A DNA stretch of 64,000 nucleotides from Thermoplasmata archaeon (GTDB lineage Archaea; Thermoplasmatota; Thermoplasmata; Thermoplasmatales; GCA-001856825), in NCBI GenBank assembly GCA_021787125.1, contig JAJYMI010000076.1, positions 264 through 64,263 on the forward strand, given 5' to 3'. Made by a program: the position numbers and the translations under genes. Under the pieces are notes generated by a model. That model ran no database searches. It was not told the origin of the DNA and saw only the letters and a list, made by a program, of their open reading frames with translations. This document shows, one piece after another, positions 3,334 to 47,821 of this stretch. Within the stretch, counting starts at the first letter, position 1. Each line of letters starts with the position of its first letter.

Positions 3334-3427
3334 GAAATTGACAAGAATAGATTCTAATGCAGACCTCGTAAATCTGCAACAACCAGATTATGAAATAGGA
3401 CTGACACTCTTGAATTTGAAGCAGAGG

Positions 3428-7354: not shown

Positions 7355-7781
7355 GGGAGATTTGTCGCAGATCATTCCTACAATATATTCGCTGTCAACT
7401 CCAGGAACTTCAGTTTATGTGCTTTCTCCTTGGCTGAACATTCACGTAGAGGTCATCATACCATGGAAGAAGACAGATAATGAGAAACCTTTCATTGAAT
7501 TTGTGGTTTCCGAAAGACGAAGAGGCGTGGACAGCGTCTTCTTCGTTAGTACTATGGCTAGAGATGATAAAGAGACTCAGAGATCCATAACAGAATTGAC
7601 TGGCTTAGAGTTTAGAATCAAAGTGATTGAAAATCTTCACTCTAAAGCTGTGATTGGAAATTTGTTGATGTACAGAGGAAGTGCAAACATAACATATAAT
7701 GGGCTCTATAACAATATTGAATCCGTGACAATGACCGTTGTCAACAATCAAGAAGAGGCACTTAGGGGGCTCTTAGCATAA
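7335..7781 (+). CDS. Single-HKD phospholipase-D-family nuclease (Nuc/DrmC-like), 148 aa
   Basis: LHSKAVIGNLLMYRGSANITYNG is an HxK(x)4N(x)5GSxN motif, with H at 7638. TTG start overlaps the helicase stop by 20 nt. Confidence 0.75.
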   Translation: MESSFYKGDLSQIIPTIYSLSTPGTSVYVLSPWLNIHVEVIIPWKKTDNEKPFIEFVVSERRRGVDSVFFVSTMARDDKETQRSITELTGLEFRIKVIENLHSKAVIGNLLMYRGSANITYNGLYNNIESVTMTVVNNQEEALRGLLA

Positions 7782-7798
7782 AAAAGTGATGAAGTCAA

Positions 7799-8983
7799 AT
7801 GTCGCAAGAGTTGATACATCTCATCGATTCTCCATTCCGGTCAAGGAAGTCAAAATATTTTACAGTATTTGGTTCTGAGCGTACCTTTGATCTATTAATA
7901 TCCAACAAGTTCTACCCGACAATTCTACCTGCCAGTGGTAAGCTCATTTCTTTAACTGTAACCACTGAAAACCTTGAGAACAAGTTCGATTATATCCAAA
8001 AGAGTTACAATAAAATCATAACTGCTAACCTTTCACAAACCAACGAAATTGACAATTTTGTAACCTACGGAAAGTTTTCTACTTATGAAGTTTCTGACAG
8101 GGTATACAGTGTTTACCTTGATTCTCTTAATCTAAATATCTTATCCACCCCTCCATTGGTGATTGAAAAAGAGATTGAAGGCAAGAAGAATAATGAGATT
8201 ATAGGGAAGACTCGACATTTTCAATGGGCTTCTTACTCACGCTACGGAAAGGACTCAATAGACGCAACTTTCAACATAATAATAGTAAACTTTCCACGGA
8301 CTAATCTGCGATATAGTGGTCATACAATAATCAACTTTAGAGGACAGGAACTACTTGTATCATCGATTTTTGCAAAAATGCTTGTTTCGGGGCGAGATGG
8401 AAATTTCTCATTCGTTTTCGTAAAGCTCGTGTTTGATCCTTCTCTGTTTAATGAAATTCTACGAAATGATTTAGTTGCTTGTGTTCTCCAAGTCTACACG
8501 CTATACAACATAAAAGATGGAAATAAGGATATTCAGCCTATCAACTATGTAACTGCAGTTGTCCCGTTCTTCGGGTCATATGAAGAACTGATTCCTTTTT
8601 TCTGCAACCAATTCTCTGAGGAGGGGTATAGCAGGAAGTGCATAGTTGATAAGAAAATAATGGAGAAACTACGTTTTCAGATACTGGAAGGTTCAAGGAC
8701 AGAGGATAAAGAAGTACACCTTGAAAGCAATGTTTACTCACTCCGCGAACACCAGGAATGCTTCGAATATTCAATACTCAGACCTGAATCAATTCTTAGA
8801 TTTATTGAAGGGGCCGTGTCTAGTGACTTAGGTCGGTCCATTTTGGAGAACACAGTTTCTGACGGAGATATAAAACAAGAAGCGCAGCACTTGGTTGAGC
8901 AACTTAAGAATAGCTCTTTCATTAATGGCACACTTATAAATCCCGGTTTGAAACGCTCTATACTTGAAGCATTTAAAGTTTAG
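7799..8983 (+). CDS. Hypothetical 394-aa protein, no recognisable motif
   Basis: ORF track. Lies 17 nt after the PLD gene and 44 nt before the TGT-like gene, with the same AT-rich composition. Confidence 0.6.
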   Translation: MSQELIHLIDSPFRSRKSKYFTVFGSERTFDLLISNKFYPTILPASGKLISLTVTTENLENKFDYIQKSYNKIITANLSQTNEIDNFVTYGKFSTYEVSDRVYSVYLDSLNLNILSTPPLVIEKEIEGKKNNEIIGKTRHFQWASYSRYGKDSIDATFNIIIVNFPRTNLRYSGHTIINFRGQELLVSSIFAKMLVSGRDGNFSFVFVKLVFDPSLFNEILRNDLVACVLQVYTLYNIKDGNKDIQPINYVTAVVPFFGSYEELIPFFCNQFSEEGYSRKCIVDKKIMEKLRFQILEGSRTEDKEVHLESNVYSLREHQECFEYSILRPESILRFIEGAVSSDLGRSILENTVSDGDIKQEAQHLVEQLKNSSFINGTLINPGLKRSILEAFKV

Positions 8984-9027
8984 AAGCATCGTAAGAAACT
9001 ATAATAGCCTTCAGGTCCTATATTAAT

Positions 9028-10170
9028 GTGAAGATGATCCCAATTTTTGTCGCTGATAGGCCATTTTCCTTAAAAATACTGGAGGGACTGAAGTGTCAAG
9101 GATATCCATTCGGCATTTTGTCCCACGTATTTACCTCGAAAAATTTTAAGGAGAAATTTAAGGATTTTACTCTGGCAACGATAAAGGTCGGGGATTCAGG
9201 AATTTACCAAGGACAAGATGTTAGCTATGAATACCTGTTCAGCCAATACGTAAAAATGGGAGTCAGCCATGGTATCATAAAGGACTACTACAGAGATCCC
9301 GAATTGACTTTAAGTAGCGCAAAAGAAGCTATTAAAATACATAACACCGGTGACTATAACAAGAGTTTCGAACTTGTTGGAGTCGCCCAAGGAAGGTCGG
9401 TTGAGGAATATGTCGAGAGTTACAGGAAACAGAAAAAAATGGGCTACGAAATGGTTGCAATTGGCGGGCTTCTAGACAAAGTACAGAGGCACGTAAGACT
9501 AGTTAAGGTGAAAAGAGAAGAATTATTAGAGGAAACCTTAAGAACAATAAGAGAGCATTATCCACAGGATAGACTGTTTCCACTAGGAACTTTTAACAGA
9601 GCAAGAATAAAACTCTTCAAGGAAGTTGGAGTCTGGGGATCAGATTATAAAGGCTGGATTTTCAAATATAATCTGGAAGAAAGTCACATTCAGAACAACA
9701 GGACAGAACAGACTCGAAATTACATTGAGACAAAGGTATTTCCCATACTGGGTAAAGAAAGACTGCTCATACTTTCTTGCTCCGATTCCAAGAGAATTGG
9801 AATCGGCAAGGCAATTGACATTTATGATGGGCCGGCCTACAAAATTGTAAGAAAGTATCTCAGGCATAACAATGGTTTAGACGTGCGAATAATCTCAGCG
9901 AAGTACGGCATAATCAGCAAGGATACCCTAATAGAAGATTACAACGAAAGACTCACTCCAGAGAAGGCATCTGTATACAGGACTAGGTATTCGCAAGAAA
10001 TCAGAACGCTGAGTTCAGCGTATGGTGAGGTATTAATATATGGGGGCAGCACTTATCAATCTGTATTCAAAAATGTGGAAGTAAAAAGGACAAACGGAAG
10101 AATTGGAGAACAGTTATCGCAGCTCAAGAAATGGCTTTATTCTCAAGATCAACCGAGTTCATCTTCTTAG
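9028..10170 (+). CDS. TGT-fold (tRNA-guanine transglycosylase / DpdA-like) domain fused to a DUF6884-like C-terminal domain
   Basis: TGT-like motifs: VGDSGIYQG (DSG at 9193-9201, compare TGT DSGGFQ), MVAIGGLL (9457-9471, compare AIGGL), LFPLGTFN...VGVWGSDYKGW. C-terminal region from 9763: LLILSCSDSKR...IDIYDGPAYK...RIISAKYGII. With only two Cys, the canonical TGT zinc site is absent. ATG 9034 is an alternative start. Confidence 0.65.
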   Translation: MKMIPIFVADRPFSLKILEGLKCQGYPFGILSHVFTSKNFKEKFKDFTLATIKVGDSGIYQGQDVSYEYLFSQYVKMGVSHGIIKDYYRDPELTLSSAKEAIKIHNTGDYNKSFELVGVAQGRSVEEYVESYRKQKKMGYEMVAIGGLLDKVQRHVRLVKVKREELLEETLRTIREHYPQDRLFPLGTFNRARIKLFKEVGVWGSDYKGWIFKYNLEESHIQNNRTEQTRNYIETKVFPILGKERLLILSCSDSKRIGIGKAIDIYDGPAYKIVRKYLRHNNGLDVRIISAKYGIISKDTLIEDYNERLTPEKASVYRTRYSQEIRTLSSAYGEVLIYGGSTYQSVFKNVEVKRTNGRIGEQLSQLKKWLYSQDQPSSSS

Positions 10171-11325: not shown

Positions 11326-11354
11326 ATAAATGAAAAAAGTGAAGAAATGAATTC
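11326..11354. repeat. Direct repeat, left copy (ATAAATGAAAAAAGTGAAGAAATGAATTC)
   Basis: Core 11331-11354 matches 19038-19061 at 23/24 nt. TACTGGC is also shared upstream (11314-11320 and 19008-19014). Confidence 0.55.
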
Positions 11355-11386
11355 GAAATTTAACTCAAAGTAAATCTCTTAAATCT

Positions 11387-11944
11387 CTACCTAATCGAAG
11401 TGTGCCTTCTATTATAGAGCTCAAGTTTTGATTTCAAAATCTCTGATACGTCAGTCTCATTTTCTGCAGGGTACAACTTGTCATCTGGAATATTGGCGTA
11501 CCTAATCCTTGCATCTAGCCTCTTGCCAGCAAGATCAGAACTCCAGCCTTTCACACGGTAGCATATTACAAGTCTCTTTAGGGACCACGCAAAAGCCAGT
11601 TCAGACAGTGTTCCTGCTCCTCCACCCATCGCTACCACTGCATTTCCGTTTGCCACTATTAAATTTCTGAATTCATCCAGCCCAGACGCTATTACTATGT
11701 CTGCAACTCCTTCTGCGACCTTAGGATCAAATCCAGGAAGGATCGCAATGATGTCACCATCCGTGTAATTCGAGGATTTCCTCCCTCCCACCGAAAGGGC
11801 CCTAGGGAGAGACCCAATTCCTCCCGAGAGTATTCTGTACCCGTCGTCAATAAGCCTTCTCCCCAGCGAAACCGCAAGATTCCATTTTTCCGATCCCTCT
11901 GGGATGTTCCTGTCCCCTATAACGGAAATGATTGGCTTACTCAT
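11387..11944 (-). CDS. LOG / TIGR00725-type SLOG Rossmann-fold protein
   Basis: ISVIGDRN...LSGGIGSLPRA...AILPG...RNLIVANGNAVVAMGGGAGTLSELAFAW (GGGxGTxxE motif). Overlaps the end of the megaprotein gene by 8 nt. Confidence 0.75.
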   Translation of the reverse strand: MSKPIISVIGDRNIPEGSEKWNLAVSLGRRLIDDGYRILSGGIGSLPRALSVGGRKSSNYTDGDIIAILPGFDPKVAEGVADIVIASGLDEFRNLIVANGNAVVAMGGGAGTLSELAFAWSLKRLVICYRVKGWSSDLAGKRLDARIRYANIPDDKLYPAENETDVSEILKSKLELYNRRHTSIR

Positions 11945-14900
11945 TTTGATAATACCCCCTTTTCTCTAAAATCCCTCCTATAATTCTTTCATTTTCTTCT
12001 CTGCTTCTCTTCTTTTTGTCTGCAGATGGGTCGTAGAAATATATCAGTTGCTTTATCCACACAGGAGATTTCGCCATCTCCACTATCGGTATCATGAAGG
12101 CCCAGTCCTCAGCCTGCGGAATCCACTTGCCATCCAACTTAAAGTCTTCCTCGTCTATCTCATCAAACAGATATTTTCTGAATGTTCTCAGATGCTGCCA
12201 GACGTTTCCTCCCCTGTTCTTCCTCGGGTTGACAAAATTGACCTGGTAATAGGAATGCTTATCCGCCCTCAGCATTGAACCAACGGTCACATCCGCTCCC
12301 TCTCTGTATTTGGTTACCACAGTATCCACAACATCCCTTCCTATGAGTGCATCATCCGCATCGACCATAGCAATGATAGAATTGGGATTCTTGCATATTT
12401 TTCTGACCGCGAAATTTACGTTTTCCATGGGGGTCAATGCTTCAAGATTCCTCATGATAGTCATTCTCTCCCTGACTCCAGGGAAGACAAGATTCTCCAC
12501 GTACTCCAGCATGCCGTTCCTGGAGGATGCATCGATAAACACCATTCCGAACGATTGATTTCGCTGAGAGAACAGTGAATCAAAACATCTCCTCACTTTG
12601 GAGATGGGTACATCCCGCCCCCTGATTATGACGACCACCTCTTCGTTTCGTTCCCCTGACCAGTCCGCGACAGATCCGACAAGATCCACTCTGCCCTTCT
12701 GTGGTGGAAACACATTTCCTATCTCCAACGATTTCACGATGTTGAACCAGTCATTGAATTCGGACTTCCTTTCGTTTGGAATGTGAATGAAGAAGGTCGA
12801 TCCAATCGGAGCCCTGAGAGAGTGGAGGCCATCTTTCAAGATTGCCCTGTCAATGCTTCTGTGCCACGGGAAAACAAGTCTCCCCTCCTCGTCCACCTCA
12901 TTTTCCAGCGGCAGGAATTTCTCCAACCTATCGAGGGAAATCAGTGAATTCCTGACTTCGATCCTCCAATCCACTCTTTCATAGTAGCTTTCCCTTCTTT
13001 CTCCCGAACCCGCGACTGGAAATGAAACGGAGATAGCCCTCTCATCGTTTTCCAGAATGTCGATCATCTCTTGTAGGAAGTTGGATCGAGGTCCATCCCT
13101 CCATATAATTGAGTCTCCATCGCACTGCAGCACGTACTTCGTCCTGCAGTTCTGAAATCCATAGAGTGTGGTCAGGATGGGCTGACCGTTAGAGCTCCTC
13201 ACTTTGTCGCTCTCCAATCCGAACCATCGTCTGCTTATTCCCTTCCGAATGGTGGGATCATCGGGCAGGACAAGGTATCTATCCAGGGTCCCTTCCGCGA
13301 CAAGAGAATCAAGCGTCTGAATGAGATTCTCAAAATCCCCCTCATCGTATTGCCTGTTGAATCCTTCTTCCTCCATGTCGGTGACCGCTACCCTTTCCCT
13401 GAATGCTCTGGGAGAATCCAGTTGGTTCACCAGATGCCGTATCTGCATGTTGGCAGTTTTCCATTCCATTGCTGAAATTTTTATCAGGAGGGTCGCATTC
13501 TGGTTTACAACTTGCATCACTGGGCTCAAAACGAAGAGCATCAGGTCGCTCCCGGGTGAAAGATTGTTAAAATCCAAGGATGGCAATTCGTGAACTTCGT
13601 CAATGCTGAATCCTGCTTCCGTGAAGAGCTTTGAGTACCAGTCAAAGGGTCTGTGATAGTCCTCCCTTCTCTTGAAGGTGCTCTTCACGATCTTCTCGTA
13701 TCTGGTCAACTTGGAGTACTCTGGAAGTGGAGAAGCCACTAACGAGTGCTCGCTCTCCTCTTGCTCATTGCTGAAGGGATTACAGACTCCGATCAGCGCC
13801 CTACCTCCTTTTTTTACCAATCGTCTTATATTGGTCATTATCTTGTTTGCTTCAGCATCCTTTACCTCACACAGTACCTGGTTAGCCAGGACAAGGTCAA
13901 ACTTCCTTCTTCCCGCGGAGTTATCGTTTATCTGTGATTCTGACATGCTCTTGATTCTATTTTCTCCAGTATGCCTCTTGTTGAATTTCTCATAATCTAA
14001 GTCGTAAACCCAGACCCGTGCTTGCCCAGAAATCAGATCGGCCAGCCAACCGTTGCCAGTTCCGTAATCCAAGACCGTTTTCGGACCGAGGCCCCTGATA
14101 ATTTTTTCAATAAGTCCGTACAACCGATCGTGTAACGACCCTGCGTCCAACGATGACCTGAAATACTCAAACCCGTACAACTCCGGCATGTCGTATTCCT
14201 TCAGAGTCCTATGCGCTAGTTCCTTGAAATCGCTCCTGAAGTGCCACCTATAAGTTAGAAATGCTCTCCTGCACATGTTGTCGTAGTAACCGTCGGAAAA
14301 CCCAACGATGCTGGTTCCCAAGTCAACATACATCACCCGCGAGCCGCTGACGATGAGGTTATCAGGGGAAATGTTGGTGAGACAGATACCTGCTGCCCTG
14401 CACTCCTGCAGAAGTTCCATTATAGAACTGAGATATCCGCCATGGTACATTTCGCCCTCCACAAACGAGGAGACCAAGATTACTCTGCCTTCAGAGACGA
14501 CCACCTTTTCTATTCCAGCCAGATGCTTCAGTTGCAGATTGGAATTCGCAATCTTCCGAAGAAGTTCGAGCCTCCCGTGCTCAAAGTGCTGGGCTCCATG
14601 ATGAAAATACTTGTAGGATCTTGTACCGTCAGAAAGAACGATGCCTTCGCTTCCTTCTCCCAGCAGCCTGAGACGCCGTCGACCAAATTTCTTTTCGATG
14701 ACGTTCTTCGCATCTTCGATTTCTTCAGTGCTTGCGTGAACGGGCAATTTCTCACGATAGGAGACACAGTAGGATTCCAAGTTTTCTAGAAATTCTGTCA
14801 ATTCTTTTCTCGCATTCGCGAGTGATTCCATTTGTCCCGTCAAGTTGGGCGGTGAGAATTCATTCTCGATTTTTTGGAGGGTCTCTTCGACGGCACCGGA

Positions 14901-17087
14901 GTAGCTTCTTACGAGGTCACCTGCTGTACTCGGTGTTGTCTTCATTTCTTCCAGCGCCTTCCTGATCGAACCTACGAGTCCCCTTATCCTCCAGGAATTC
15001 ATCAGAAGCATGTTGAACCGAAACTTCACTCTGGCTTCAAAATCTGAAACCAGCTGGTCAATTTGCTCACTGGAAGAACTAAGGAGATCGTGGGCGGATG
15101 CACCGTCTCCCAGCCTCTCTCTCGTGCTCGTAAGGAATTGTTTCAGTGTTCGTACCAGCGAAGCACCGTAGATGTCGTCTATGGTGGTTCGGAGCGCAAG
15201 CTTAGAATCAACACCGTAACGCCTATCCTGGCGCAGAGACAGCGGAATCGACACCACCTTCTTCCTGCGAGTGAGAACATTTCTGCCCCCAACCTCCTGA
15301 TTCAGCAGGGCCCATACTGTATCTCCTCTTCTGAAGGTGGTTCTGTCGGTGACGGGAGCAATGTTCGGAAATGTCCTGAGACATTCAGGGTCAAATACCA
15401 GGGTGTTTCCACCTCTAACTGGAATGCCGCCTTCAGTCGTTTCTTGGTCTGATGACGGTACAACGGGTCTGAACAGGTTCACCCCCGAATTGATTAGAGG
15501 GAAGTTCTCAAGCATGTGTCTTAGCGTAGAGGCGCTTGTATCCTCGGTATCCGTCACGTACCAACTTGGAGCTTCCAGGTGGCCATAGTGGCGCAAGGTG
15601 AGATCGTAATAGTAGTCGGTGTACCTTTCTGAGATGACTCCGTTCTCTGCCTCTTTCTTCTGAGACTTGGGCGTACTGCTGGACGGATTTGTTAGGGCTT
15701 GAAGATTGAATAGAAAGTCCAGCAGCTGCGTTCGAACCATGCTCGCTGCGGGAAGGGGAGGATCCCCAGAAATCTTGCCAATTGCGATGGAGCAACCTTC
15801 TGACCTCAGCGACGAAAGGTAATCCATGAATTCTCCTTCGTCAAGTCTGGTGTTGTTCAGACCCAGATCGTCCAACCGGACGTCATCGTCAAGTATCCAT
15901 ATGACCGGATTCGTCAAATCAAAGGATTCCAGGTAGAGGTAGTGGTGCAGGACCGTTCTTCCAAAGGGAATTCCTTTGCGTCTGAAGCCCGCTTCATAGT
16001 ATTTCCCAAAATTCCCGTTTGCTGCATCTCTTTCGATCAATTCTTTTCCAACGATGCGGACCACGAATTTCTGAGAGACCGTATGAGCTATGGTATCCAG
16101 CCTCTGCGAATCGCCAGAATTGTCGCAGATCACAATTATTGCCTTACCTTTCGGAACTCTGAGGAACTGCCCAATATCTTTCAGGAGAAGTTCTGTGGAA
16201 TCGAGATTGGAGCACGTAAACCCGATCAGGAGATCAGAAGACGAATGGGCAGTCGATGAAGCCTTGCGCTGGTGCTGTTTCATCAACGGTCGTTCCTTGG
16301 TTTCCTTTACCAAGTCATTTTCAGAAAAGCCAAAGAGGTCTAGAGCTCTCTTCTTGAACTGAGCCCGCTCCTCAGCGTTCATCCTGGATGAATATTTTCT
16401 GAAGAACTCAATGAGTCCTTGCCTCTTTCGTTCCGATCCATAGCTTGAAATGCGGTCCTTTCCAGTGGAGTAGTGATGGACAAGGTGTTCATCGACGTAG
16501 CTGACCTTAAGGCCTTTGAGGTCAAAGAGTCTTATACAGACGTCCCTATCGGTTGTGCTTTCAAGATTCTCGTCAAAGGCTCCCGCCTCCAATATCGAAG
16601 ACAGCCTGACGAACAGATTTGAGCCTTGAACGTGAGGATTGGTAGAAAGGAATGAGGATGAGGAAAGATTGTGCGGAATTGCTTGTTTTCTTCCTATATC
16701 GTCTTCTATTTCATGCCTCACCATGCCTGAGACAACCAGATCGGAGTCGTTCAGGGTCGCAGAGTCAAAACATTTCTCAATATAACTCCCCTCCCAAGCA
16801 TCGTCATCGTCAAGAAAAGCCACATACGTTTCGTCTGGATCTACGTTTATAGAAACGAGATAGAAGAGCGCGGTGTTCAGTGCTCCAGACATGTTTGCAG
16901 TTCTTTGATTGACAAGAGTGACAAGTTCGGAATTGATATCGGTACTCAGTGAAGAAGTGTCTTCATTGTTTTCCCCTACCAAGATTACCTTATCTGGTCT
17001 CAGGGATTGAATGAAAATGGATTTCAGGGCTCTTGGAAGTGAGTCTGGTCTTCCCTTGGTTGGTGTGATTGCAAAGATTTCTGTCAT
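11937..17087 (-). CDS. 1716-aa multidomain enzyme: GT2 glycosyltransferase, second GT-A-like domain, protein-kinase-like domain, class I SAM methyltransferase, GT-A-like domain, C-terminal GT2
   Basis: - **N-terminal GT2:** FAITPTKGRPDSL...FLDDDDAW.
- **Second GT-A-like domain:** IVICDNSGD...WILDDDVRLDD.
- **Kinase-like domain:** LLGEGSEGIV...SYKYF...LTNISPDNLIV...YVDLGTS.
- **Methyltransferase:** VLDYGTGNGWLA...FDLVLANQVL.
- **GT-A-like domain:** VLQCDGDSII.
- **C-terminal GT2:** VVVIIRGRD...FIDASSRNG...MVDADDALIG. Confidence 0.8.
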   Translation of the reverse strand: MTEIFAITPTKGRPDSLPRALKSIFIQSLRPDKVILVGENNEDTSSLSTDINSELVTLVNQRTANMSGALNTALFYLVSINVDPDETYVAFLDDDDAWEGSYIEKCFDSATLNDSDLVVSGMVRHEIEDDIGRKQAIPHNLSSSSFLSTNPHVQGSNLFVRLSSILEAGAFDENLESTTDRDVCIRLFDLKGLKVSYVDEHLVHHYSTGKDRISSYGSERKRQGLIEFFRKYSSRMNAEERAQFKKRALDLFGFSENDLVKETKERPLMKQHQRKASSTAHSSSDLLIGFTCSNLDSTELLLKDIGQFLRVPKGKAIIVICDNSGDSQRLDTIAHTVSQKFVVRIVGKELIERDAANGNFGKYYEAGFRRKGIPFGRTVLHHYLYLESFDLTNPVIWILDDDVRLDDLGLNNTRLDEGEFMDYLSSLRSEGCSIAIGKISGDPPLPAASMVRTQLLDFLFNLQALTNPSSSTPKSQKKEAENGVISERYTDYYYDLTLRHYGHLEAPSWYVTDTEDTSASTLRHMLENFPLINSGVNLFRPVVPSSDQETTEGGIPVRGGNTLVFDPECLRTFPNIAPVTDRTTFRRGDTVWALLNQEVGGRNVLTRRKKVVSIPLSLRQDRRYGVDSKLALRTTIDDIYGASLVRTLKQFLTSTRERLGDGASAHDLLSSSSEQIDQLVSDFEARVKFRFNMLLMNSWRIRGLVGSIRKALEEMKTTPSTAGDLVRSYSGAVEETLQKIENEFSPPNLTGQMESLANARKELTEFLENLESYCVSYREKLPVHASTEEIEDAKNVIEKKFGRRRLRLLGEGSEGIVLSDGTRSYKYFHHGAQHFEHGRLELLRKIANSNLQLKHLAGIEKVVVSEGRVILVSSFVEGEMYHGGYLSSIMELLQECRAAGICLTNISPDNLIVSGSRVMYVDLGTSIVGFSDGYYDNMCRRAFLTYRWHFRSDFKELAHRTLKEYDMPELYGFEYFRSSLDAGSLHDRLYGLIEKIIRGLGPKTVLDYGTGNGWLADLISGQARVWVYDLDYEKFNKRHTGENRIKSMSESQINDNSAGRRKFDLVLANQVLCEVKDAEANKIMTNIRRLVKKGGRALIGVCNPFSNEQEESEHSLVASPLPEYSKLTRYEKIVKSTFKRREDYHRPFDWYSKLFTEAGFSIDEVHELPSLDFNNLSPGSDLMLFVLSPVMQVVNQNATLLIKISAMEWKTANMQIRHLVNQLDSPRAFRERVAVTDMEEEGFNRQYDEGDFENLIQTLDSLVAEGTLDRYLVLPDDPTIRKGISRRWFGLESDKVRSSNGQPILTTLYGFQNCRTKYVLQCDGDSIIWRDGPRSNFLQEMIDILENDERAISVSFPVAGSGERRESYYERVDWRIEVRNSLISLDRLEKFLPLENEVDEEGRLVFPWHRSIDRAILKDGLHSLRAPIGSTFFIHIPNERKSEFNDWFNIVKSLEIGNVFPPQKGRVDLVGSVADWSGERNEEVVVIIRGRDVPISKVRRCFDSLFSQRNQSFGMVFIDASSRNGMLEYVENLVFPGVRERMTIMRNLEALTPMENVNFAVRKICKNPNSIIAMVDADDALIGRDVVDTVVTKYREGADVTVGSMLRADKHSYYQVNFVNPRKNRGGNVWQHLRTFRKYLFDEIDEEDFKLDGKWIPQAEDWAFMIPIVEMAKSPVWIKQLIYFYDPSADKKKRSREENERIIGGILEKRGYYQNE

Positions 17088-17206
17088 CAGAACACCACGG
17101 TCATAATTGTTGCATAATTGAATTCCTCATTGTCGCCCCAACTGGCGCCCAAGCTTTCCTGGGATTCTCCACAATGAGTATTTGTCAGCCTCTTCTTCAG
17201 GCACAT
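17087..17206 (-). CDS. Small ORF, 39 aa (MCLKKRLTNTHCGESQESLGASWGDNEEFNYATIMTVVF)
   Basis: Own codon-by-codon translation. It fills the epimerase-megaprotein gap. Its TGA shares the A of the megaprotein ATG (17087). GAAGGGA lies upstream of ATG 17206. Confidence 0.3.
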   Translation of the reverse strand: MCLKKRLTNTHCGESQESLGASWGDNEEFNYATIMTVVF

Positions 17207-17225
17207 GCGAATCCCTTCAAGATGG

Positions 17226-18167
17226 CTACTCCATTGGGTTGGGCAGAGGAGAAATTTGCTGACTCGAAATCGCGTCTGAAATTACCCTGCTCACAATTTC
17301 CTCAACGCTGATTCTCGGAGACCAACCCAGCACCGAAACGATTTTCCTGTGATCGGAATACTGGTCAAAGGCCTGAGTGTTTGCTTCCCTGAACTCTATG
17401 GAGCCCTTCCCCACCTTCTTTACAACCAGATTGGCCAGATCGATGACGGAGATCGGTTTGTTGCCCAAGACAAAGACATCGTAAGTAGCGCTCATCGTAC
17501 GGAGATGGTTCAATCCCAGTGAAAATGCAGTCGCGACATCTATTGGATGTATGAACTCTCTTATGTGCTTTCCGTCTCCCAGAATTACAATGGGCTTGTC
17601 ATTGAGTGCAGCGCTCACGAATTCCCTCAGGACGTTCATCTCTTTCTGACCCTCTCCACTAACTAGCGGAGGCCGAAACATTACCGTTTTAATTCCGTAG
17701 ATATCGGAATAGAGCTTTGCTATTTCTTCGACGAACGCCTTAGAAGACCCGTACGGATTGTTTGGATGAAAGGGGGTTTCCTCGTTTATTGGGCAGGGGG
17801 CATGGCCATATGGAGAGAAGCTGCCCATACCCAGAACCCTGGCGATGTCAAGCCGTCTGCAGGCTTCATAAACATTGAGCGCCGCATTTACGTTTACCCT
17901 CAAGTAATCGTAGGTTTGCTTAACGCTTTCAGCGCCGCCCCCTTTTCCGTTCGACCCCGTGAGGGCAGCGAGATGCACAAGGACGTCTGGTTCGGAAAGT
18001 TCTAGGACACGTTTGAGATCTGGATAACGAGTTGCATCAGTCACGTAGTGATTCCGACCCTTACTGCCTACGATGTCCAGAGTTGCGGTGTCGTGCCCAT
18101 CGAGATTTAGCTGTCTGTGGATGTACCTGCCAATGAATCCCTCTCCCCCCGTGACTAGGACTTTCAC
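17226..18167 (-). CDS. NAD-dependent sugar-nucleotide epimerase/dehydratase (SDR family)
   Basis: KVLVTGGEGFIGRYI (GxxGxxG) and YGSSKAFVE (YxxxK). The GTG start forms a GTGA overlap with the NYN gene stop. Confidence 0.85.
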   Translation of the reverse strand: MKVLVTGGEGFIGRYIHRQLNLDGHDTATLDIVGSKGRNHYVTDATRYPDLKRVLELSEPDVLVHLAALTGSNGKGGGAESVKQTYDYLRVNVNAALNVYEACRRLDIARVLGMGSFSPYGHAPCPINEETPFHPNNPYGSSKAFVEEIAKLYSDIYGIKTVMFRPPLVSGEGQKEMNVLREFVSAALNDKPIVILGDGKHIREFIHPIDVATAFSLGLNHLRTMSATYDVFVLGNKPISVIDLANLVVKKVGKGSIEFREANTQAFDQYSDHRKIVSVLGWSPRISVEEIVSRVISDAISSQQISPLPNPME

Positions 18168-18766
18168 TTATTGTCACTCCCTCTTTTTAGACCCAGATCC
18201 TCAAGCCTTGGATAGAACAAGATATGCATGGATTGTCCAATCGTGACGAACAGGAATTTGAGGCAGATTGCAGGCAAAGATGATCTCGCAAGTTTCAAGT
18301 CATTCGTCAGCAAGATAGGTCTGGTACTAGAGGGCATGAGTCGACGTTTGATTTCTCGAATAAACATGTCTGCGGAGGTTCCGGCAGGTACCTGGTTTAT
18401 TTTCCCCTGGGAGATTAGATTCTCGTAGGCGATATTGTCGTCTATTGTATGCCTGAGGGTCGCATCAGCTATGCAAATATAGGGAACATTGATCCCGTCG
18501 AATTCCAACAGAACTGTTATGATTCTAGAGATCTGTGGTTTTCCGGGGCCTGCCCAGGCAACATTACTTGCATCTATCACCACAAAGCTATCTATTCGGG
18601 GACCGCTTGCAATATCATCACTGCCAGAACTTTGCTTAGAGATTTCTGTTTCACCATTCCTTCTTAGAGGCAGGCTCATATCATCTTCGATTCCTCTCCC
18701 GTTTAGAGAAAAATCGGAATCCGCAGATTCAGCCATAGAAAACACTCTCCTCTTTTTTGAGTACAA
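18164..18766 (-). CDS. NYN (Zc3h12a-like) ribonuclease-domain protein
   Basis: FVVIDASNVAWAG...ICIADATLRHTIDD...PAGTSADMFI resembles the VIDGSNVA...D pattern of NYN/PIN-like RNases. Confidence 0.6.
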   Translation of the reverse strand: MYSKKRRVFSMAESADSDFSLNGRGIEDDMSLPLRRNGETEISKQSSGSDDIASGPRIDSFVVIDASNVAWAGPGKPQISRIITVLLEFDGINVPYICIADATLRHTIDDNIAYENLISQGKINQVPAGTSADMFIREIKRRLMPSSTRPILLTNDLKLARSSLPAICLKFLFVTIGQSMHILFYPRLEDLGLKRGSDNK

Positions 18767-19031: not shown

Positions 19032-19061
19032 ATAAAATGAAAAAAGTGAAAAAATGAATTC
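19032..19061. repeat. Direct repeat, right copy (ATAAAATGAAAAAAGTGAAAAAATGAATTC)
   Basis: See 11326-11354. This copy also carries a local duplication of GTGARAAATGAAT (19021-19033 and 19046-19059). Confidence 0.55.
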
Positions 19062-19070
19062 TAACTGGTT

Positions 19071-19553
19071 CTAGGTACTTATTCCTCTGTGATAGCTTAT
19101 CAATTTTCCTTCTCCATCAAATATGAATGTCTTAGATGTGTAGAACCAGGGAAATAAGTGACCATGAGTTATTTTCACCGTGAACTTCACTGCGTTTATT
19201 TTGTCAACCATATGCTCTTTCCCAATGAATCCCCTCACGTTGACTTGTCCATTGTGGCCAATGAAAGGTACCGTGTTACTATCCGAGCCACTTGTATCGG
19301 TTCCGTCGATTCTCCATTTGATGTCCCTAGCGGTTCCAGGTCCTGCATTCATGATCTCTAAGTCCAAGTATTCACTCCCTCCTGAGAAGAACTTCGGCCC
19401 AAGCGTGTTGTCAGGATAAGAATATGCAAGATCCAAAGCCTTCGTTACAAGAACTGGAAAGACTGCCGATAAATTCGCGATTAGCACATTCATCAGGGTA
19501 AGAAACAGTCCAAGAACCGTTAAGGCTAACCCAATATACTCTATCCAATACAT
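19071..19553 (-). CDS. Hypothetical membrane-anchored protein, 160 aa
   Basis: ORF track. N-terminal hydrophobic helices: IEYIGLALTVLGLFLTLMNVLIANLSAVFPVLV. Confidence 0.5.
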   Translation of the reverse strand: MYWIEYIGLALTVLGLFLTLMNVLIANLSAVFPVLVTKALDLAYSYPDNTLGPKFFSGGSEYLDLEIMNAGPGTARDIKWRIDGTDTSGSDSNTVPFIGHNGQVNVRGFIGKEHMVDKINAVKFTVKITHGHLFPWFYTSKTFIFDGEGKLISYHRGIST

Positions 19554-20113: not shown

Positions 20114-21349
20114 CTACTTTGTAGAATTTTCCCCTCCTAAGCCTTTAAGTTCTCTAACCTGTACTTCTATCTCTGCTGGGGATTCAATCTGCTTTCCATT
20201 GCCCGGTCCCAGTTCTCCGAACTTCCTCGCACTCACTAGTACTCTGCCCTCGTACGAACCTATCAAAGCATTGTAGCCCTTCGCCACTTTCTCAATGTTA
20301 TCACCCAATTTAGATATGTCTTCACTTATCTTTTTCAGTCTCTCGTAGAGCTCTTTGCCGGCTTCGAGTATCACCTTTGCATTTTCTTCAACTTTCCTTT
20401 CACTCCATCCTCGGGCAATTGCTTTCATGAGAGAGAGAAGAATTGTTGGAGTTGCGATTATAATGTTTGCTTCCATCGCTTTATTTACAAGTTCCTTATC
20501 TTCCTGAAGCGCTGCATAGAGGAATGATTCTCCAGGTATATACATCACAACAAGCTCTAGTGACTCTTTGTACATCGCATTGAAGCCCTTCCAGTATTCC
20601 CTCTTGGAAAGGTCAACTGCGTAGTCCTTAATCTTTTTAGCATGGTCCTTCATCAACTTCTCCGTCTCCTCCGGTGTTTTCGCTTCAAGTGCAGAAAGAT
20701 AACTTGATGTTGGGGCTTTTGAATCTACGATTATGACTCTATTGGAAGGAAGGTTGACAACCATGTCTGGTCTTCTCTCTCTTCCATCGACCGTTATACT
20801 GACCTGACTATCAAAATCGCAATATTCTGTCATACCAGAGAGCTCTGCTATCCTCTTCAGCGTGGTCTCTCCCCAGTTTCCTTTCGCCTGAGGATTCCTG
20901 ATCGCATTTGACAGTTGGTTAGCCGAATCTCTGAGATTTTTCTCATTTTCAACAAGAGCTTTGACCCGTTCATCCAAACTAGCATAGGATGTCAGCCGAG
21001 CGGCTTCGATTGTGCTCAATGCAGTTCCAACGCTCTGGAGATAGTTGTTAAGAGACTCTACTGTGCCTTCTATTCCCGTTTTAGCTTCATCAATTTTAGT
21101 GGTGGCTGCAGTGACTATGGGACCTATCTGATCCTTCGCTAATTGGACTGTTTCCTCTCTGTTAGTTTTCACAGATTCAGTTGCTGCAGTTTTGACGGCG
21201 TTCTTGATTGATTCCAAGTCTATTACCGGTGGGGGAGTTGAAAGTACTTGTTTGCCTCTCCAAAGTATCAGTCCAATAATTACTCCGCCAAGAATTCCAA
21301 TTACAAGTCCTATAGTTAATGAAATCGCATCCATTCTTTCATCAACCAA
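20114..21349 (-). CDS. rmuC: DNA recombination protein RmuC family
   Basis: N-terminal TM helix, long coiled coil, then RRPDMVVNLPSNRVIIVDSKAPTSSYLSAL, which matches the RmuC RPD...LP...IDSK nuclease-like core. Confidence 0.8.
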   Translation of the reverse strand: MVDERMDAISLTIGLVIGILGGVIIGLILWRGKQVLSTPPPVIDLESIKNAVKTAATESVKTNREETVQLAKDQIGPIVTAATTKIDEAKTGIEGTVESLNNYLQSVGTALSTIEAARLTSYASLDERVKALVENEKNLRDSANQLSNAIRNPQAKGNWGETTLKRIAELSGMTEYCDFDSQVSITVDGRERRPDMVVNLPSNRVIIVDSKAPTSSYLSALEAKTPEETEKLMKDHAKKIKDYAVDLSKREYWKGFNAMYKESLELVVMYIPGESFLYAALQEDKELVNKAMEANIIIATPTILLSLMKAIARGWSERKVEENAKVILEAGKELYERLKKISEDISKLGDNIEKVAKGYNALIGSYEGRVLVSARKFGELGPGNGKQIESPAEIEVQVRELKGLGGENSTK

Positions 21350-22312: not shown

Positions 22313-25300
22313 ATGCATGACAAAAGAAAGAGATCGGCAGCTTCTAGACGAATGGAAGCTGAGACTAAACACGAAATACAGAATAAACAACTAGCCAAAC
22401 TATTGGATAATCTCGAAACATTATACAAGAACGTGAAACTGGGTAATACAACTCTAACAATGCAAGAGGAATCGTCTTATGTTATGGATTACCTCAAGGC
22501 ACTTGTGCTGTCAAAACCGGAGTCCGCTGCTTCTGAAAAGCTATTAAAGCCCATTATGCAGGTGGCAGGGATAGAAAACTTTCCTGAGGGAAGAGTGGGA
22601 GGAGGGTGGGTGGATTTCATTTTACCATCATCAAGGGAGATAGGCCCCCCTGTAGCTTTGGAGCTTAAACCTCTGCACGGAAGCGACGGGAAGCTGAATC
22701 CTCTTTCAAAGGAGTTCGATCAATTGGTTGACCAGGTCACTAACACAAGGACCAACCAGATCATAAGGTATATCCTAGGAGGAAACGGGAACAGGGGAGT
22801 AGATTTTGTCGTGTTCACAAATCTCAAAGAAGTCTACATTTTTGACAAAGGTTGCATAACGAAGTTCGAACCTGCCAGGAAGGAGACTTTTAAAGAATTC
22901 ATTGAAGCCATTTCAGTTACAAAGAACATCTCTGACTACCTGCGAAGGGTCACTGAAGAACTGGAGAAGAGGGACTTGGATAGGTATTTCTTCAACGATC
23001 TTAAGAAATGGTTCGGTTATCTTCAGGAACTGGACTGGAATAGCGATCCACAAGTCAACAGCGTGCTTCTCCTGAACAAGCTGATCTTCGCTCTGACTCT
23101 TGAAGATTTTATGATTATAGACTATAGGGAAACATGGGATATGTTCTCTAGGAATTTTAATAAATGGAGTGCCAAGGGACCCAAGGCAGTGCTGAAGAAT
23201 TTCTTCAAGGAATTGGACGAGTTCCTTTACGAGTATTACGACACCGAACTATTTGTTCCATCAAACAGCATACTTTCGAAATTCAAGGAGTCCAACGAGA
23301 GCTACGCGAAACTTCTCAAAACTCTAAGGTCCGTTGCAGGTTTTGTGGATGAACCCACCTTATTTTCGGGTGGATTGTATTCCTATAATTTCAGGTTGAT
23401 AAACGAGGACGTATTTGGGAAATCATATGAAACCTTTCTGGCGGAGAACAGGAAGGAGTCCGGGATATACTATACCCCCAATCAGATCACAGGAAGGATG
23501 GCATCAGACCTAGTGCAACACCTTTTTGGCAAAATAAGAGATAAGTTGGTTCAAGATTTGAGCATCGAAGAGTACGACGAAGCGTTAATACTGGCAGATC
23601 AGCTGGTGAAAATAACAATATTTGACCCCGCATGCGGATCGGGAGCCTTTCTAATAAGCGTTCTCAGGGAAATCGTGAAGGTTTATTCGGACATTAAACC
23701 AAAAACAGAATGGATCAATCAGCTAGGTCTAAAGGAGATATCCGAACCTGAAAGGGTGAGAATAGATAAGGTGAGACAGTTAAGGGAGACCCTTGGCTTT
23801 AACGGACAAATGAAAGGAATAGACAGAATACTTCTTTCAAAGATAATCCTCCGGCACATCTACGGATGTGACCTTGACAATACTGCATTAAATGTTGCTA
23901 AGGTTAATCTTTGGAAAGAGACTGTGAAGCTGAATCCAGAGTCATTCTATTTTCAGAGTCTCCCACAATCCATAAATCATATACTGCCTGCCCTAAAGGT
24001 AAACTTTGTTTGTGGAAACTCTATAGTTGGCTTATCAGATGAGTATGTAGTAAAGTACCTTACTGACAACTTCAGAGAAGATATCAAATCAATGCTTGAT
24101 TTAAGGAAAGAATACCTCAAAGATCCTTCAAACGCAGACATAGCTGAGAAAATCGAAGAAATAAAAGAACCCATCAGGTCCTCACTTTCGGTAGAATTTG
24201 GTAAAATATATCCAGAGCTGGAAAGCCCTCTATTCTATCCGCTAGAATTCTTTTTCATATACTTTAGTGAAAATGGCATACCCGTTGAAGAGAACTCTCG
24301 GAAGTTTTCGGCTTTAATAGGCAACCCCCCTTGGAACGATGTTAAACCGATTAAAAAAGAATTTGCGCAGAAACACCCTAGTATATTTGGGGAAGGGCTA
24401 ACAAAATTTTCAATCTCAGGCAAGGAATTCGAGAAAACGTTTGATAGAAAGTTGATGAATGCGGAAACAAAAGAGTTATGGAAAAAATACAGGGATGAGA
24501 TCCATGCTCTTTCTGATTTTATTAGAAAGAATTACGGTTTGCAATATAAAGGGGATACATCCCTTCAAAAGACATTTCTGGAAAAATTTATTAGATTATC
24601 TAGGGACGCTTTTGCAATACTGATCCCTTCCAATTTTCATACCGACGAGGGTGCGTCTGATCTTAGGAAGGAAATATTCGATAAATGGCAACTGAATTAT
24701 CTGATTTCCTTTGAAAACAAACATAAAGTCTGGTTTAATATGGAATCGCGGTTCAAATTCGACATGTTATTTGTGACGAGCCATAAGACTGGAGAATCCT
24801 TCAAGGCGAAATTCTACGTACATAACTGGAAAGAAACGGAGAGGTTACTCGACTACCCTATAGAGCTTATTCTAAAACTATCGCCTCAAATGCTTGGAGT
24901 TATGGAATTTCGGTCGGAGGAAGACGTAGAAATTATAAGAAAAATTAGAGCAGATCACCAATCTGCTTTTGATTATGGATTTAGATTTTCAAGAGAATTT
25001 GGTTATCCGGGAGACAATGATCTCCTAGAAGATCAGCCCTCACACGGTGATATTCCTGCCTTTGAAGGAAAGACGATTCACCAATATGATTCAAATTACT
25101 CAGATAATAGGTATTGGATAAATGAAATGAATGGAAGAGAACGACTCAAGAATTCCTTTATCCAGTCCGTGACAAAGTACTTTAATGATAAGCCAAAAGT
25201 GGCCCAAATGTTAGAGAAGGGGGAACTGTTGATGGATTATGAGACGGATAGGCTTGTGTTACGAAGGCAGGCAAGAACGACAGATGAACGAACGTTAATC

Positions 25301-25741
25301 GCTTCAATAGTACCCAAGAGGAATTTTTTGTTAGATAGTCTCGCATACCAGAGGCCTTATCAGTTTGAAGTCGCAGAAGGAAAAATAAGACAAGTTCATA
25401 ACATGGATGAAGATTATTATCTCCTTGCTCTCCTAAATAGTTTCGTACTTGATTACTATATCAGACAGCGTATTTCAGCTAACCTCAATTTCTCTTTCTT
25501 GTATGAATTACCGATCCCAAAAATATCCAATATGTTAAAAGAGAGAGTAGTATCTTTGGCGCGAGAACTTGTTAGGAAACCTACTGACAGGGCAAAAAGG
25601 ACGGATATTGAGATATTAATAGCGAAAGAGTTTTTTAAATTGAGCAAAGAGGATATAACTTACATTTTGAATTCATTTGTGTACGGGGACATAGATAAAG
25701 AGCTGATAGAGCTAATTAAAGAGAAATATGAACATAACTGA
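22313..25741 (+). CDS. Type IIG/IIL fused restriction endonuclease - N6-adenine DNA methyltransferase (Eco57I/MmeI-like)
   Basis: - **N-terminal nuclease:** PD-(D/E)xK candidate GWVDFILPS...ALELKP.
- **Methyltransferase motifs:** I IFDPACGSGAFLISVL; IV LIGNPPWNDV.
- **C-terminal target-recognition pattern:** LLALLNSFVLDYYIRQR...LYELPIP. Confidence 0.8.
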   Translation: MHDKRKRSAASRRMEAETKHEIQNKQLAKLLDNLETLYKNVKLGNTTLTMQEESSYVMDYLKALVLSKPESAASEKLLKPIMQVAGIENFPEGRVGGGWVDFILPSSREIGPPVALELKPLHGSDGKLNPLSKEFDQLVDQVTNTRTNQIIRYILGGNGNRGVDFVVFTNLKEVYIFDKGCITKFEPARKETFKEFIEAISVTKNISDYLRRVTEELEKRDLDRYFFNDLKKWFGYLQELDWNSDPQVNSVLLLNKLIFALTLEDFMIIDYRETWDMFSRNFNKWSAKGPKAVLKNFFKELDEFLYEYYDTELFVPSNSILSKFKESNESYAKLLKTLRSVAGFVDEPTLFSGGLYSYNFRLINEDVFGKSYETFLAENRKESGIYYTPNQITGRMASDLVQHLFGKIRDKLVQDLSIEEYDEALILADQLVKITIFDPACGSGAFLISVLREIVKVYSDIKPKTEWINQLGLKEISEPERVRIDKVRQLRETLGFNGQMKGIDRILLSKIILRHIYGCDLDNTALNVAKVNLWKETVKLNPESFYFQSLPQSINHILPALKVNFVCGNSIVGLSDEYVVKYLTDNFREDIKSMLDLRKEYLKDPSNADIAEKIEEIKEPIRSSLSVEFGKIYPELESPLFYPLEFFFIYFSENGIPVEENSRKFSALIGNPPWNDVKPIKKEFAQKHPSIFGEGLTKFSISGKEFEKTFDRKLMNAETKELWKKYRDEIHALSDFIRKNYGLQYKGDTSLQKTFLEKFIRLSRDAFAILIPSNFHTDEGASDLRKEIFDKWQLNYLISFENKHKVWFNMESRFKFDMLFVTSHKTGESFKAKFYVHNWKETERLLDYPIELILKLSPQMLGVMEFRSEEDVEIIRKIRADHQSAFDYGFRFSREFGYPGDNDLLEDQPSHGDIPAFEGKTIHQYDSNYSDNRYWINEMNGRERLKNSFIQSVTKYFNDKPKVAQMLEKGELLMDYETDRLVLRRQARTTDERTLIASIVPKRNFLLDSLAYQRPYQFEVAEGKIRQVHNMDEDYYLLALLNSFVLDYYIRQRISANLNFSFLYELPIPKISNMLKERVVSLARELVRKPTDRAKRTDIEILIAKEFFKLSKEDITYILNSFVYGDIDKELIELIKEKYEHN

Positions 25742-36752: not shown

Positions 36753-36753
36753 T

Positions 36754-47816: not shown

Positions 47817-47821
47817 TCCCC

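Follow-up and report, generated by a model that had tools for sequence, protein, structure and literature searches.

What is the function of a short, coupled set of genes in which a nucleotide-sugar epimerase and a very large glycosyltransferase protein are joined by an NYN-type ribonuclease-like protein and by a protein of the SLOG superfamily? The question is raised by positions 11387-18766 of a 64,000-nucleotide stretch of a metagenomic Thermoplasmata archaeon contig of about 68 kb (assembly GCA_021787125.1, contig JAJYMI010000076.1; this whole stretch is hereafter called the window), where four minus-strand open reading frames (ORFs), all co-directional and overlapping, were found: an NYN-like gene (18766..18164, a 200-amino acid (aa) ORF), a short-chain dehydrogenase/reductase (SDR) epimerase gene (18167..17226, 313 aa), a megaprotein gene (17087..11937, stop codon included, 1716 aa) and a SLOG gene (11944..11387, 185 aa). 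Comparison with homologous loci indicates that this cassette is the archaeal ‘NYN + epimerase’ form of a rare core of two genes, which is horizontally mobile and consists of a soluble megasynthase of ~1700 aa and the SLOG protein coupled to it.

Domain architecture and distribution of the megaprotein

The megaprotein had initially been annotated as a six-domain enzyme; six catalytic-type domains are indeed present, to which an apparently helical linker has to be added. From the N-terminus, and with all coordinates on the minus strand, these are a GT2-family GT-A glycosyltransferase (GT) domain (domain 1, residues 1-262, 16302..17087, with an invariant DDDD at 93-96), a divergent predicted GT-A domain (domain 2, residues 284-645, 15153..16238, invariant DDD at 400-402), the poorly conserved linker (residues 646-795, 14703..15152), a short kinase-fold domain similar to eukaryotic protein kinases (residues 796-985, 14133..14702), a class-I S-adenosylmethionine (SAM)-dependent methyltransferase (residues 986-1192, 13512..14132, with motif I DxGxGxG and an invariant D1029), a further divergent predicted GT-A domain (domain 3 and fifth catalytic-type domain, residues 1193-1482, 12642..13511, invariant D1323xD1325), and a last GT2-family GT-A domain (domain 4, residues 1483-1716 plus stop codon, 11937..12641, invariant DxDD at 1576-1579). 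The megaprotein is matched by PF00535 over two stretches (2e-17, 64.1 bits versus a cut-off of 23.3) and by methyltransferase families at about 1e-11, and is labeled in databases merely as ‘glycosyltransferase’ or ‘SAM-dependent methyltransferase’. Sequence-profile searches of the PDB gave no real match for residues 284-645 (which also lack a Pfam match; the PDB matches to PDE4 are spurious) and none for residues 1193-1482, and structure prediction was therefore needed: the AlphaFold2 model of the former (predicted local distance difference test (pLDDT) 90.6) has Foldseek matches to K4CP, GpgS, GtrB and others with probability 1.0, and that of the latter (pLDDT 91.1) has structural matches to hyaluronan synthase and K4CP. 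From their modeled fold alone, both regions would be GT-A domains, and would define two GT-A families not covered by Pfam models. The linker, which reads as helical from its sequence alone, was searched against Pfam and the PDB without a match.

The kinase-fold domain matches profiles of CDKL5, TTK and CK2 at about 1e-6 to 1e-5, and reads xRNxHPxN instead of HRDxKPxN at residues 903-910 (about 14358-14381). The Asp of the HRD motif is replaced by Asn in all 68 full-length homologs compared (68/68), in which the G-loop, K826, N910 and D922 (the DFG-type Asp) are invariant; all the DxD motifs and methyltransferase motif I are likewise conserved in 68/68. The domain therefore appears, from its sequence, to keep its ATP-binding features without a canonical catalytic base, making canonical catalysis doubtful and suggesting either a pseudokinase or a non-canonical chemistry.

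More than 326 full-length homologs of the megaprotein were identified, sharing 30-54% identity and a conserved length of ~1700-1760 aa. The family is rare: its family-specific domain (residues 1193-1482) is found in only 320 clusters (50% identity) out of 1.84 billion representatives, and the clusters listed correspond mostly to proteins of megaprotein length or to shorter pieces of the megaprotein. Its distribution is patchy, from Thermoplasmatota to Planctomycetes, and includes both Archaea (Bathyarchaeia, Thermoplasmata, Methanomicrobiales and Nitrososphaerales) and Bacteria (Dehalococcoidia, Planctomycetes, Alpha- and Gammaproteobacteria, Opitutaceae, Flavobacteria, Actinomycetales, Poribacteria and Latescibacterota), with a few cultured carriers (Methanofollis ethanolicus, Rubrivivax sp. 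A210, Roseovarius autotrophicus, Pseudotabrizicola sediminis and Halomonadaceae KBTZ08). Scanning a single genome for each species gave 151 loci, of which 80 were retained, and the neighborhood census comprises 86 non-redundant loci.

Some variation on this layout was also observed. In a class of proteins of ~990-1010 aa (P0197, P0220-P0222, P0227, P0243 and P0247), a domain of the 1193-1482 type lies at residues ~475-760, and these may represent half-size or split megaproteins (kinase-fold, methyltransferase, GT-A and GT2); the N-terminal part of the megaprotein is likewise a separate ORF in L013 and L025. Two contigs of one Dehalococcoidia metagenome-assembled genome (MAG) share a 6.5-kb segment that is 94% identical and holds the megaprotein and a downstream SDR gene (L015, 9915-16422; L037, 9914-16422), the module being thus duplicated or mobile inside one genome. 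Finally, five IMG/VR contigs (L099-L103) carry the megaprotein and SLOG, four of them with a His_Phos gene and one with a UDP-glucose dehydrogenase (UGDH)-like gene. A viral origin is unconvincing, as there are only these five contigs and the match lies near the contig end in at least four; they may instead be host DNA flanking predicted proviruses.

A conserved and reciprocal link with a LOG-like SLOG protein

The SLOG protein is assigned to SLOG cluster 4 by PF18306 (4.6e-20, 72.2 bits versus a cut-off of 26.3). It scores 68.3 bits against TIGR00725, below the cut-off of 106.9, which is straddled by its operon-linked and solo relatives (94-115 bits), and is far below the cut-offs of the LOG families TIGR00730 (22.9 versus 96.35 bits) and NF058542 (26.2 versus 300 bits). 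The LOG motifs GG, RN (R93-N94) and GGGxGTxxE (G107-E115) are invariant in sets of 39 and of 24 SLOG orthologs; as judged by motif, they may be equivalent to the catalytic residues of LOG.

The SLOG gene is found directly downstream of the megaprotein gene and on the same strand in 45 of the 86 loci, the median gap being -3 nt, and it is present at all archaeal loci for which downstream DNA is available and at ~80% of the loci outside Chloroflexi. Pairwise distances of the two proteins are strongly correlated (r=0.88; Mantel test, 0/2000 permutations). In a reverse test, a metagenome scan seeded with the SLOG alignment, the megaprotein was found upstream in 42 of the 64 loci with enough upstream sequence. 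The linkage is thus conserved in Archaea as well as in Bacteria, holds in both directions and, together with the co-variation, indicates that the LOG-like protein is a genuine and ancient partner, in keeping with the module proposed in the initial annotation. An alternative is that the NYN and LOG genes were juxtaposed by chance with a GT gene in a gene-dense island, as could be argued from the fact that NYN is missing from most homologous loci, that proteins of the SLOG family also occur alone, and that the neighborhoods are otherwise highly variable. For the LOG gene, chance is excluded by its frequent overlapping arrangement in two domains of life, by the reciprocal result and by the correlated distances.

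Solo SLOG proteins are 45-50% identical to that of the window and are found at loci including L122, L137, L144, L147, L149, L153, L155, L157, L168, L169 and L172, with neighbors such as aminotransferase, GH20, MsrA and radical SAM genes. At one alphaproteobacterial megaprotein locus, a truncated SLOG remnant was found.

NYN and epimerase genes as accessories of the core

The NYN gene probably starts at ATG 18736, giving a protein of 190 aa, since this start is preceded by an AGGAGAG site 8 nt upstream, is the choice of the gene callers, and matches the start of the orthologs, one of which begins ‘MAES’. With PF11977 (RNase_Zc3h12a), the window protein gives 19.3 bits, below the gathering cut-off of 23 bits; the ortholog at L010 is above it (28.6 bits), and a precomputed match to PF11977 exists for most of the 47 members of the NYN family. 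As D55, D91, D123 and D146 (190-aa numbering) are invariant in four operon-linked orthologs, the gene would encode a Zc3h12a-type, PIN-like NYN ribonuclease with its four catalytic Asp residues retained.

NYN accompanies the megaprotein at six related archaeal loci, in the order NYN-SDR-megaprotein-SLOG in the window, NYN-SDR-HisPhos-megaprotein-SLOG in L085, UGDH-NYN-megaprotein-SLOG-radical SAM in L010 (also fetched as L188/189), NYN-megaprotein-SLOG-SDR in L011, and upstream of the megaprotein in L124 and L191. The remaining loci (about 80) lack NYN, which is therefore best regarded as a lineage-specific accessory outside the core. Chance is nevertheless unlikely here too, because the linkage has survived four gene orders among megaproteins that share only 40-53% identity, and for the cassette as a whole we consider a chance juxtaposition very improbable. 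The earlier proposal of an NYN partner consequently holds for a few related archaea and not for the family: among homologous operons, whose lack of both genes had been named as evidence for chance, LOG is retained while NYN is largely missing.

A distant relative of NYN is found in L190 (9001-15049), where it heads an operon with a micro-gene, an AAA_11/12 SF1 helicase, a 396-aa protein and a PLD nuclease; it lies next to transposases and a DUF1156/DUF499/SNF2-PLD system, and a defense function is possible for this operon as well.

The SDR epimerase matches PF01370 (9e-44, 150 bits versus a cut-off of 20.9), and its motifs GxxGxxG (GGEGFIG) and YxxxK (Y-GSS-K) are readable in the sequence. All its scores against equivalog models are below the cut-offs (e.g., 98.8 versus 262.3 bits for GalE), and it is most simply taken as a putative extended-SDR, NAD-dependent nucleotide-sugar epimerase/dehydratase. 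The spacer of 138 nt that separates it from the megaprotein gene (17088..17225) holds a 39-aa micro-ORF (17206..17087) that had been listed as a gene of the operon. This is unsupported, as the micro-ORF is not conserved and its position is occupied in the closest homologous operon (L085) by a 240-aa histidine phosphatase (His_Phos_1) gene; the micro-ORF was also rejected as a remnant of the latter, since the spacer has no protein or DNA similarity to that gene.

Other accessory genes and a possible small-molecule pathway

SDR epimerase genes are found near the megaprotein at 11 loci. A UDP-sugar dehydrogenase-like gene lies upstream of the megaprotein gene, or is fused to it N-terminally, at 17 loci; this enzyme is truncated, lacking the C-terminal domain, and its nearest named NCBIfam model is AglM. 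A histidine phosphatase (His_Phos) occurs at 13 loci and in varied positions: upstream, between megaprotein and SLOG, downstream, or fused C-terminally. A protein of Methanomicrobiales found between megaprotein and SLOG and without a Pfam hit (‘X224’) was considered as a new family, but is merged with His_Phos by iterative search. Finally, a CE4 polysaccharide deacetylase is fused to the C-terminus of the megaprotein at three loci of Proteobacteria and Flavobacteria (L049, 15050-15946; L058, 15089-15970; L078, 15047-15919), implying that the product contains N-acetylated sugars. These accessories all act on nucleotide sugars or glycans, by oxidation, epimerization, de-N-acetylation or dephosphorylation. 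An ABC transporter was rejected as a partner: a cluster of ATPases is found in 11 loci, at a median distance of 6.3 kb and on mixed strands, which is consistent with background.

Two related gammaproteobacterial MAGs carry an HhH-GPD DNA-glycosylase domain, in frame with the N-terminus of the megaprotein in one (L023, 4091-4900) and just upstream of it in the other (L022, 1-264). This may be a genuine fusion conferring DNA binding, or else a neighboring nth-like gene that has been read through.

The linkage of a UDP-sugar dehydrogenase and an epimerase to the core, and the recurrence of a histidine phosphatase—the superfamily to which GpgP belongs—are also compatible with a small-molecule pathway, leading to a soluble glycoside, a nucleoside-like metabolite, or a compatible-solute-like or polymethylated polysaccharide (PMPS)-like oligosaccharide. 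In a first version, LOG would free a base or ribose-5-phosphate, which the GTs would couple to UDP-uronic acid or other sugars, similarly to the early steps leading to cytosylglucuronic-acid nucleoside antibiotics; in a second, a GpgS/GpgP-like glycosyl-phosphoglycerate route would be followed by elongation and methylation. Such a pathway would agree with the apparently intact LOG-type N-glycosidase motifs, with the solubility of all cassette proteins (no transmembrane segment is predicted in any of the four), and with the presence among the structural matches of GpgS, mannosylglycerate synthase and AvpGT, the latter being a nucleoside-glucosylating enzyme (PMC11959488). However, these structural matches are generic for GT-A (TM 0.25-0.5) and are not ranked above polymerases, four invariant GT domains exceed the needs of a simple glycoside, and no exporter or resistance gene is linked. 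As we also know of no precedent for such a pathway in one polypeptide, it appears improbable.

Junctions and boundaries of the cassette

The close coupling of the cassette genes, pointed out in the initial annotation, is exact at every junction. The GTG start of the epimerase overlaps the NYN stop in a GTGA (18167-18164) and is preceded by a GAGGGAG ribosome-binding site; a TGATG junction lies at 17089-17085; and the SLOG start overlaps the megaprotein stop by 8 nt (ATGAGTAA, 11944-11937), preceded by a GGGGG site.

The direct repeats said to bracket the cassette are also real. A right copy of 30 nt (AAATGAAAAAAGTGAAAAAATGAATTCTAA, 19035..19064) lies 6 nt 3′ of the stop of a neighboring ORF (ORF160) and has a T6 on the minus strand, while a left copy of 30 nt (11328..11357) lies 30 nt 3′ of the SLOG stop. 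The two copies are identical at 28/30 positions and sharply bounded, are the only two within the 64-kb window (two matches were reached in 0/100 shuffles), and each is placed just 3′ of a minus-strand stop codon with a T6 run within; the right copy is putatively both the boundary of the cassette and a terminator. The bracketed 7.7 kb have a GC content of 0.475, with a step at the repeats to 0.39 and 0.41 in the flanks; the cassette is thus a discrete, repeat-bounded unit of a composition unlike that of its surroundings, which agrees with the horizontal acquisition suggested at first.

The repeat is confined to contigs of the source strain. No integrase gene is present inside the bracket, and no empty integration site was found among the contigs listed, out of 19 with ORF160, all of which carry the cassette. 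Scans of the window for tRNAs and Rfam families gave no matches, arguing against a tRNA-type att site and a riboswitch. ORF160 itself (19071-19553, minus strand, 160 aa) is located immediately upstream of the cassette; it has a transmembrane helix at its N-terminus and matches no family.

Genomic context in defense islands

In the window, the cassette is flanked on both sides by defense genes. On one side lies a Dpd-like module (3311-10170, plus strand), with a 1347-aa DpdJ/BrxH-like helicase, a 148-aa PLD-like protein, a 394-aa protein of no family and a 380-aa DpdA/DUF6884-like protein; on the other are RmuC (20114-21349), a type IIG restriction-modification (R-M) enzyme (22313-25741), an integrase-like fragment (28142-28837), a Dam-type methylase (29680-30540) and an AIPR abortive-infection protein (30594-32390). 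The conflict setting supposed at first is supported by this island, although a functional link between the cassette and the Dpd-like/DUF6884 genes was rejected in favor of probable island co-residence, DUF6884 or TGT neighbors being found at only 2/86 loci.

By a qualitative count, defense or mobile genes flank six of seven independently annotated loci. These include HD, AbiEii, a transposase, an SNF2-PLD helicase and a type IIG R-M enzyme in L085; AbiEii, PIN/MazE, HepT/MNT and a helicase in L089; a resolvase, a DNA methylase, an SMC-like protein, TIR and ThiF/E2/ubiquitin-like proteins in L090; Cas1 and an Upx-like protein in L088; and an integrase, DpdA/TGT (DUF6884-TGT), UvrD, PDDEXK, QueC and transposases in L098 (Dehalococcoidia). 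Among the six nearest neighbors at 27 SLOG-positive loci (142 proteins), no family is present in more than three proteins, the recurring ones being resolvase, SMC_N, type IIG R-M, SNF2, AbiEii, DISARM components and deaminases; families for glycan export or lipid carriers do not figure in the top list of these neighbors. Nor is a priming transferase, flippase, ABC-2 exporter, oligosaccharyltransferase or ligase gene conserved across the 86 loci. Such surroundings are compatible with a self-contained mobile module frequently inserted in defense islands; together with the lack of transmembrane segments, they also agree with the earlier view that the cassette may serve something other than plain envelope biosynthesis.

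Farther along the window, an array of large ORFs (285-934 aa) occupies 32628-49306 (minus strand, co-directional), 51174-52127 and 61381-63924, without any Pfam match at E<=1e-4; the sole PHROG match is a weak one, to a 247-aa ORF at 38063-38806. The GC content of this array is 0.46-0.53, versus about 0.40 in the adjacent defense island, and it may represent a provirus, an unknown element, or lineage-specific dark matter.

Comparison with known glycan-synthesis systems

A literature search found no published description of the megaprotein-LOG system. Its closest analogs are glycan polymerases. K4CP, the chondroitin polymerase of E. coli K4, is likewise a soluble or peripheral polypeptide with multiple GT-A domains, is among the top structural matches of residues 284-645 and 1193-1482, and is a sequence match of GT-A domain 1; moreover, the KfoA epimerase and KfoF UDP-glucose dehydrogenase of the K4 system have counterparts in the 4-epimerase-type SDR and the UDP-sugar dehydrogenase of the cassette family. 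In contrast with K4CP, which has two GT-A domains, the megaprotein has four, plus the methyltransferase and kinase-fold domains, and its loci lack kps-type export genes, have a LOG-like partner and a truncated dehydrogenase, and are found in Archaea and in defense islands. The WbdD/WbdA system of E. coli O9a offers a second analogy, since a kinase fold, a methyltransferase and a helical linker stand there beside glycan-polymerizing GTs, as do their counterparts (with an apparently helical linker) in the megaprotein, which by this analogy suggests capping of the glycan end. However, the megaprotein has another domain order in one chain, its GTs are GT-A and not GT-B, the HRD Asp is changed to Asn, and a linked Wzm/Wzt transporter is missing. 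Inclusion in the WbdD family is unsupported, as WbdD is absent among the best 60 PDB sequence matches and there is neither a hydrophobic anchor nor a transporter.

The Agl pathway of Haloferax volcanii similarly combines GT2 enzymes (AglJ/G/I/E), a UDP-glucose dehydrogenase (AglM) and a SAM methyltransferase (AglP), building a short, methylated and uronic-acid-containing glycan. Yet Agl enzymes are encoded by separate genes, act on dolichol phosphate, and depend on a flippase and AglB, none of which is linked to the cassette; in addition, the megaprotein family is also bacterial, and LOG, NYN and histidine phosphatase have no Agl counterpart. By analogy, Bcs3 of Haemophilus influenzae type b, which makes a complex phosphorylated glycopolymer, is likewise one large polypeptide with transferase and phosphatase-type modules, but the megaprotein has no TagF-like or PRTase domains and no capsule export locus, and differs by its LOG partner and defense-island context. 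Turning to the partner, LOG proteins belong to the cytokinin riboside 5′-monophosphate phosphoribohydrolase superfamily. The cassette SLOG shares with LOG and TIGR00725 proteins the PF18306 match and the GG...RN...GGGxGTxxE motifs, while scoring under the TIGR00725 and LOG cut-offs and being translationally coupled to a glycosyltransferase megaprotein; unlike the SLOG sensor ThsA, it is not fused to an effector.

These resemblances raise the alternative of an envelope-glycan module, in which the megaprotein would be a peripheral-membrane multi-GT polymerase/terminator of a methylated uronic-acid/N-acetylhexosamine glycan on polyprenyl phosphate. Unlinked host machinery would flip or export this glycan and attach it to the S-layer, capsule or lipopolysaccharide, and siting in defense islands would reflect the masking of virus receptors. 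Several observations favor such a module: the GT-A domains resemble K4CP, hyaluronan synthase, TarP and GtrB; the AglM-like dehydrogenase, the GalE-like SDR and the CE4 fusions match capsule and N-glycan pathways, of which kfoA/kfoC/kfoF of E. coli K4 and AglM and AglP of Haloferax are known genes; and the kinase fold and methyltransferase near a helical linker recall WbdD. However, no transmembrane or amphipathic anchor was detected, the priming, flippase, ABC-2, oligosaccharyltransferase and ligase genes that such a module calls for are not conserved at its loci, and the WbdD resemblance finds no echo among the best 60 PDB sequence matches. Furthermore, the full-length architecture is identical in Archaea, Dehalococcoidia, Planctomycetes and Proteobacteria, whose envelopes are very different, and the LOG-like partner, NYN ribonuclease and histidine phosphatase are left without a role. 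An envelope-glycan module is the main alternative but appears rather unlikely. Overall, the system resembles glycosaminoglycan (GAG)/capsule polymerases, WbdA/WbdD and Agl, yet fails their defining features of export or lipid linkage, WbdD homology and a canonical kinase.

Discussion

What the cassette makes is best approached from the features that set it apart from these systems. The reading that we favor, although with somewhat less than even confidence, is that of a cytoplasmic, lipid-independent and self-contained glycoconjugate synthase of conflict islands, directed against viruses or other mobile genetic elements rather than involved in housekeeping envelope synthesis. In this scheme, the SDR epimerase would supply a modified nucleoside diphosphate (NDP)-sugar, e.g., a 4-epimer or a uronic acid, a supply that would be taken over in other lineages by the truncated UDP-sugar dehydrogenase. 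The four GT-A domains would then perform successive sugar additions onto a soluble, non-lipid-linked acceptor, and the methyltransferase would decorate or cap the product. The kinase-fold domain would bind ATP and phosphorylate or otherwise activate the acceptor or product, and in some lineages the phosphate may be removed by the histidine phosphatase and the product de-N-acetylated by the CE4 domain. The LOG-like protein would bind a 5′-phosphoribosyl nucleotide moiety, either generating the acceptor or trimming a nucleotide handle by N-glycoside hydrolysis, whereas the NYN ribonuclease would be an RNA-cleaving arm added in this sub-lineage. A nucleotide or nucleic-acid substrate, as originally suspected, is inferred from the LOG-like partner and from the genomic context.

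A more specific form of this hypothesis is that megasynthase and LOG represent a new class of conflict system acting through glycosylation chemistry, in which a methylated or phosphorylated oligosaccharide would be placed on a viral component, a nucleotide or a nucleic acid. Alternatively, once activated, the system would deplete or convert the pools of nucleotides and nucleotide sugars. Processing of the nucleotide moiety would fall to the LOG-type enzyme, and the NYN ribonuclease would be an extra effector in some archaea. At present we regard this as possible, but doubtful.

A number of observations weigh against the favored interpretation of a cytoplasmic synthase of conflict islands. First, the SLOG gene is absent from a large Dehalococcoidia clade and from about nine other bacterial loci, implying that the megaprotein can work with no LOG gene next to it; reciprocally, SLOGs are solo at 22 of the 64 metagenome loci, in ordinary contexts that include human-gut contigs, and these solo proteins share all the motifs and interleave with the megaprotein-linked ones in clustering. 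Neither protein is thus strictly dependent on the other. Second, the defense role is a qualitative argument of guilt by association: L091 is flanked on one side by ribosomal and PolD genes, and PADLOC-DB v2 has no convincing match to any of the four proteins (weak partial matches are to the mad2 methyltransferase, 7e-8, and to PD-T4-6, 2e-3, with none for NYN, SDR and SLOG). Third, the phosphorylation step is uncertain because the kinase-fold domain has no canonical catalytic Asp. Finally, dehydrogenase, 4-epimerase-like SDR, deacetylase and methyltransferase are the exact toolkit of capsule, GAG-like and archaeal N-glycan pathways, and peripheral-membrane glycan polymerases are likewise devoid of transmembrane segments.

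If the favored interpretation is correct, the cassette would represent a compact and self-sufficient glycan builder that moves between Archaea and Bacteria together with a nucleotide-processing partner. It would add a glycosylation-based mechanism to prokaryotic immune and conflict strategies, the known ones being mostly nucleases, NADases and nucleotide-depleting enzymes, and it would provide a first functional context for the TIGR00725/SLOG cluster-4 family, for which we know of no assigned function. The two GT-A families not modeled in Pfam and the kinase fold with an HRD-to-N change should be of interest to enzymology and glyco-engineering. Even if the product were only an envelope glycan, a one-polypeptide synthase with four GTs and a methyltransferase, present in both prokaryotic domains, would be unusual.

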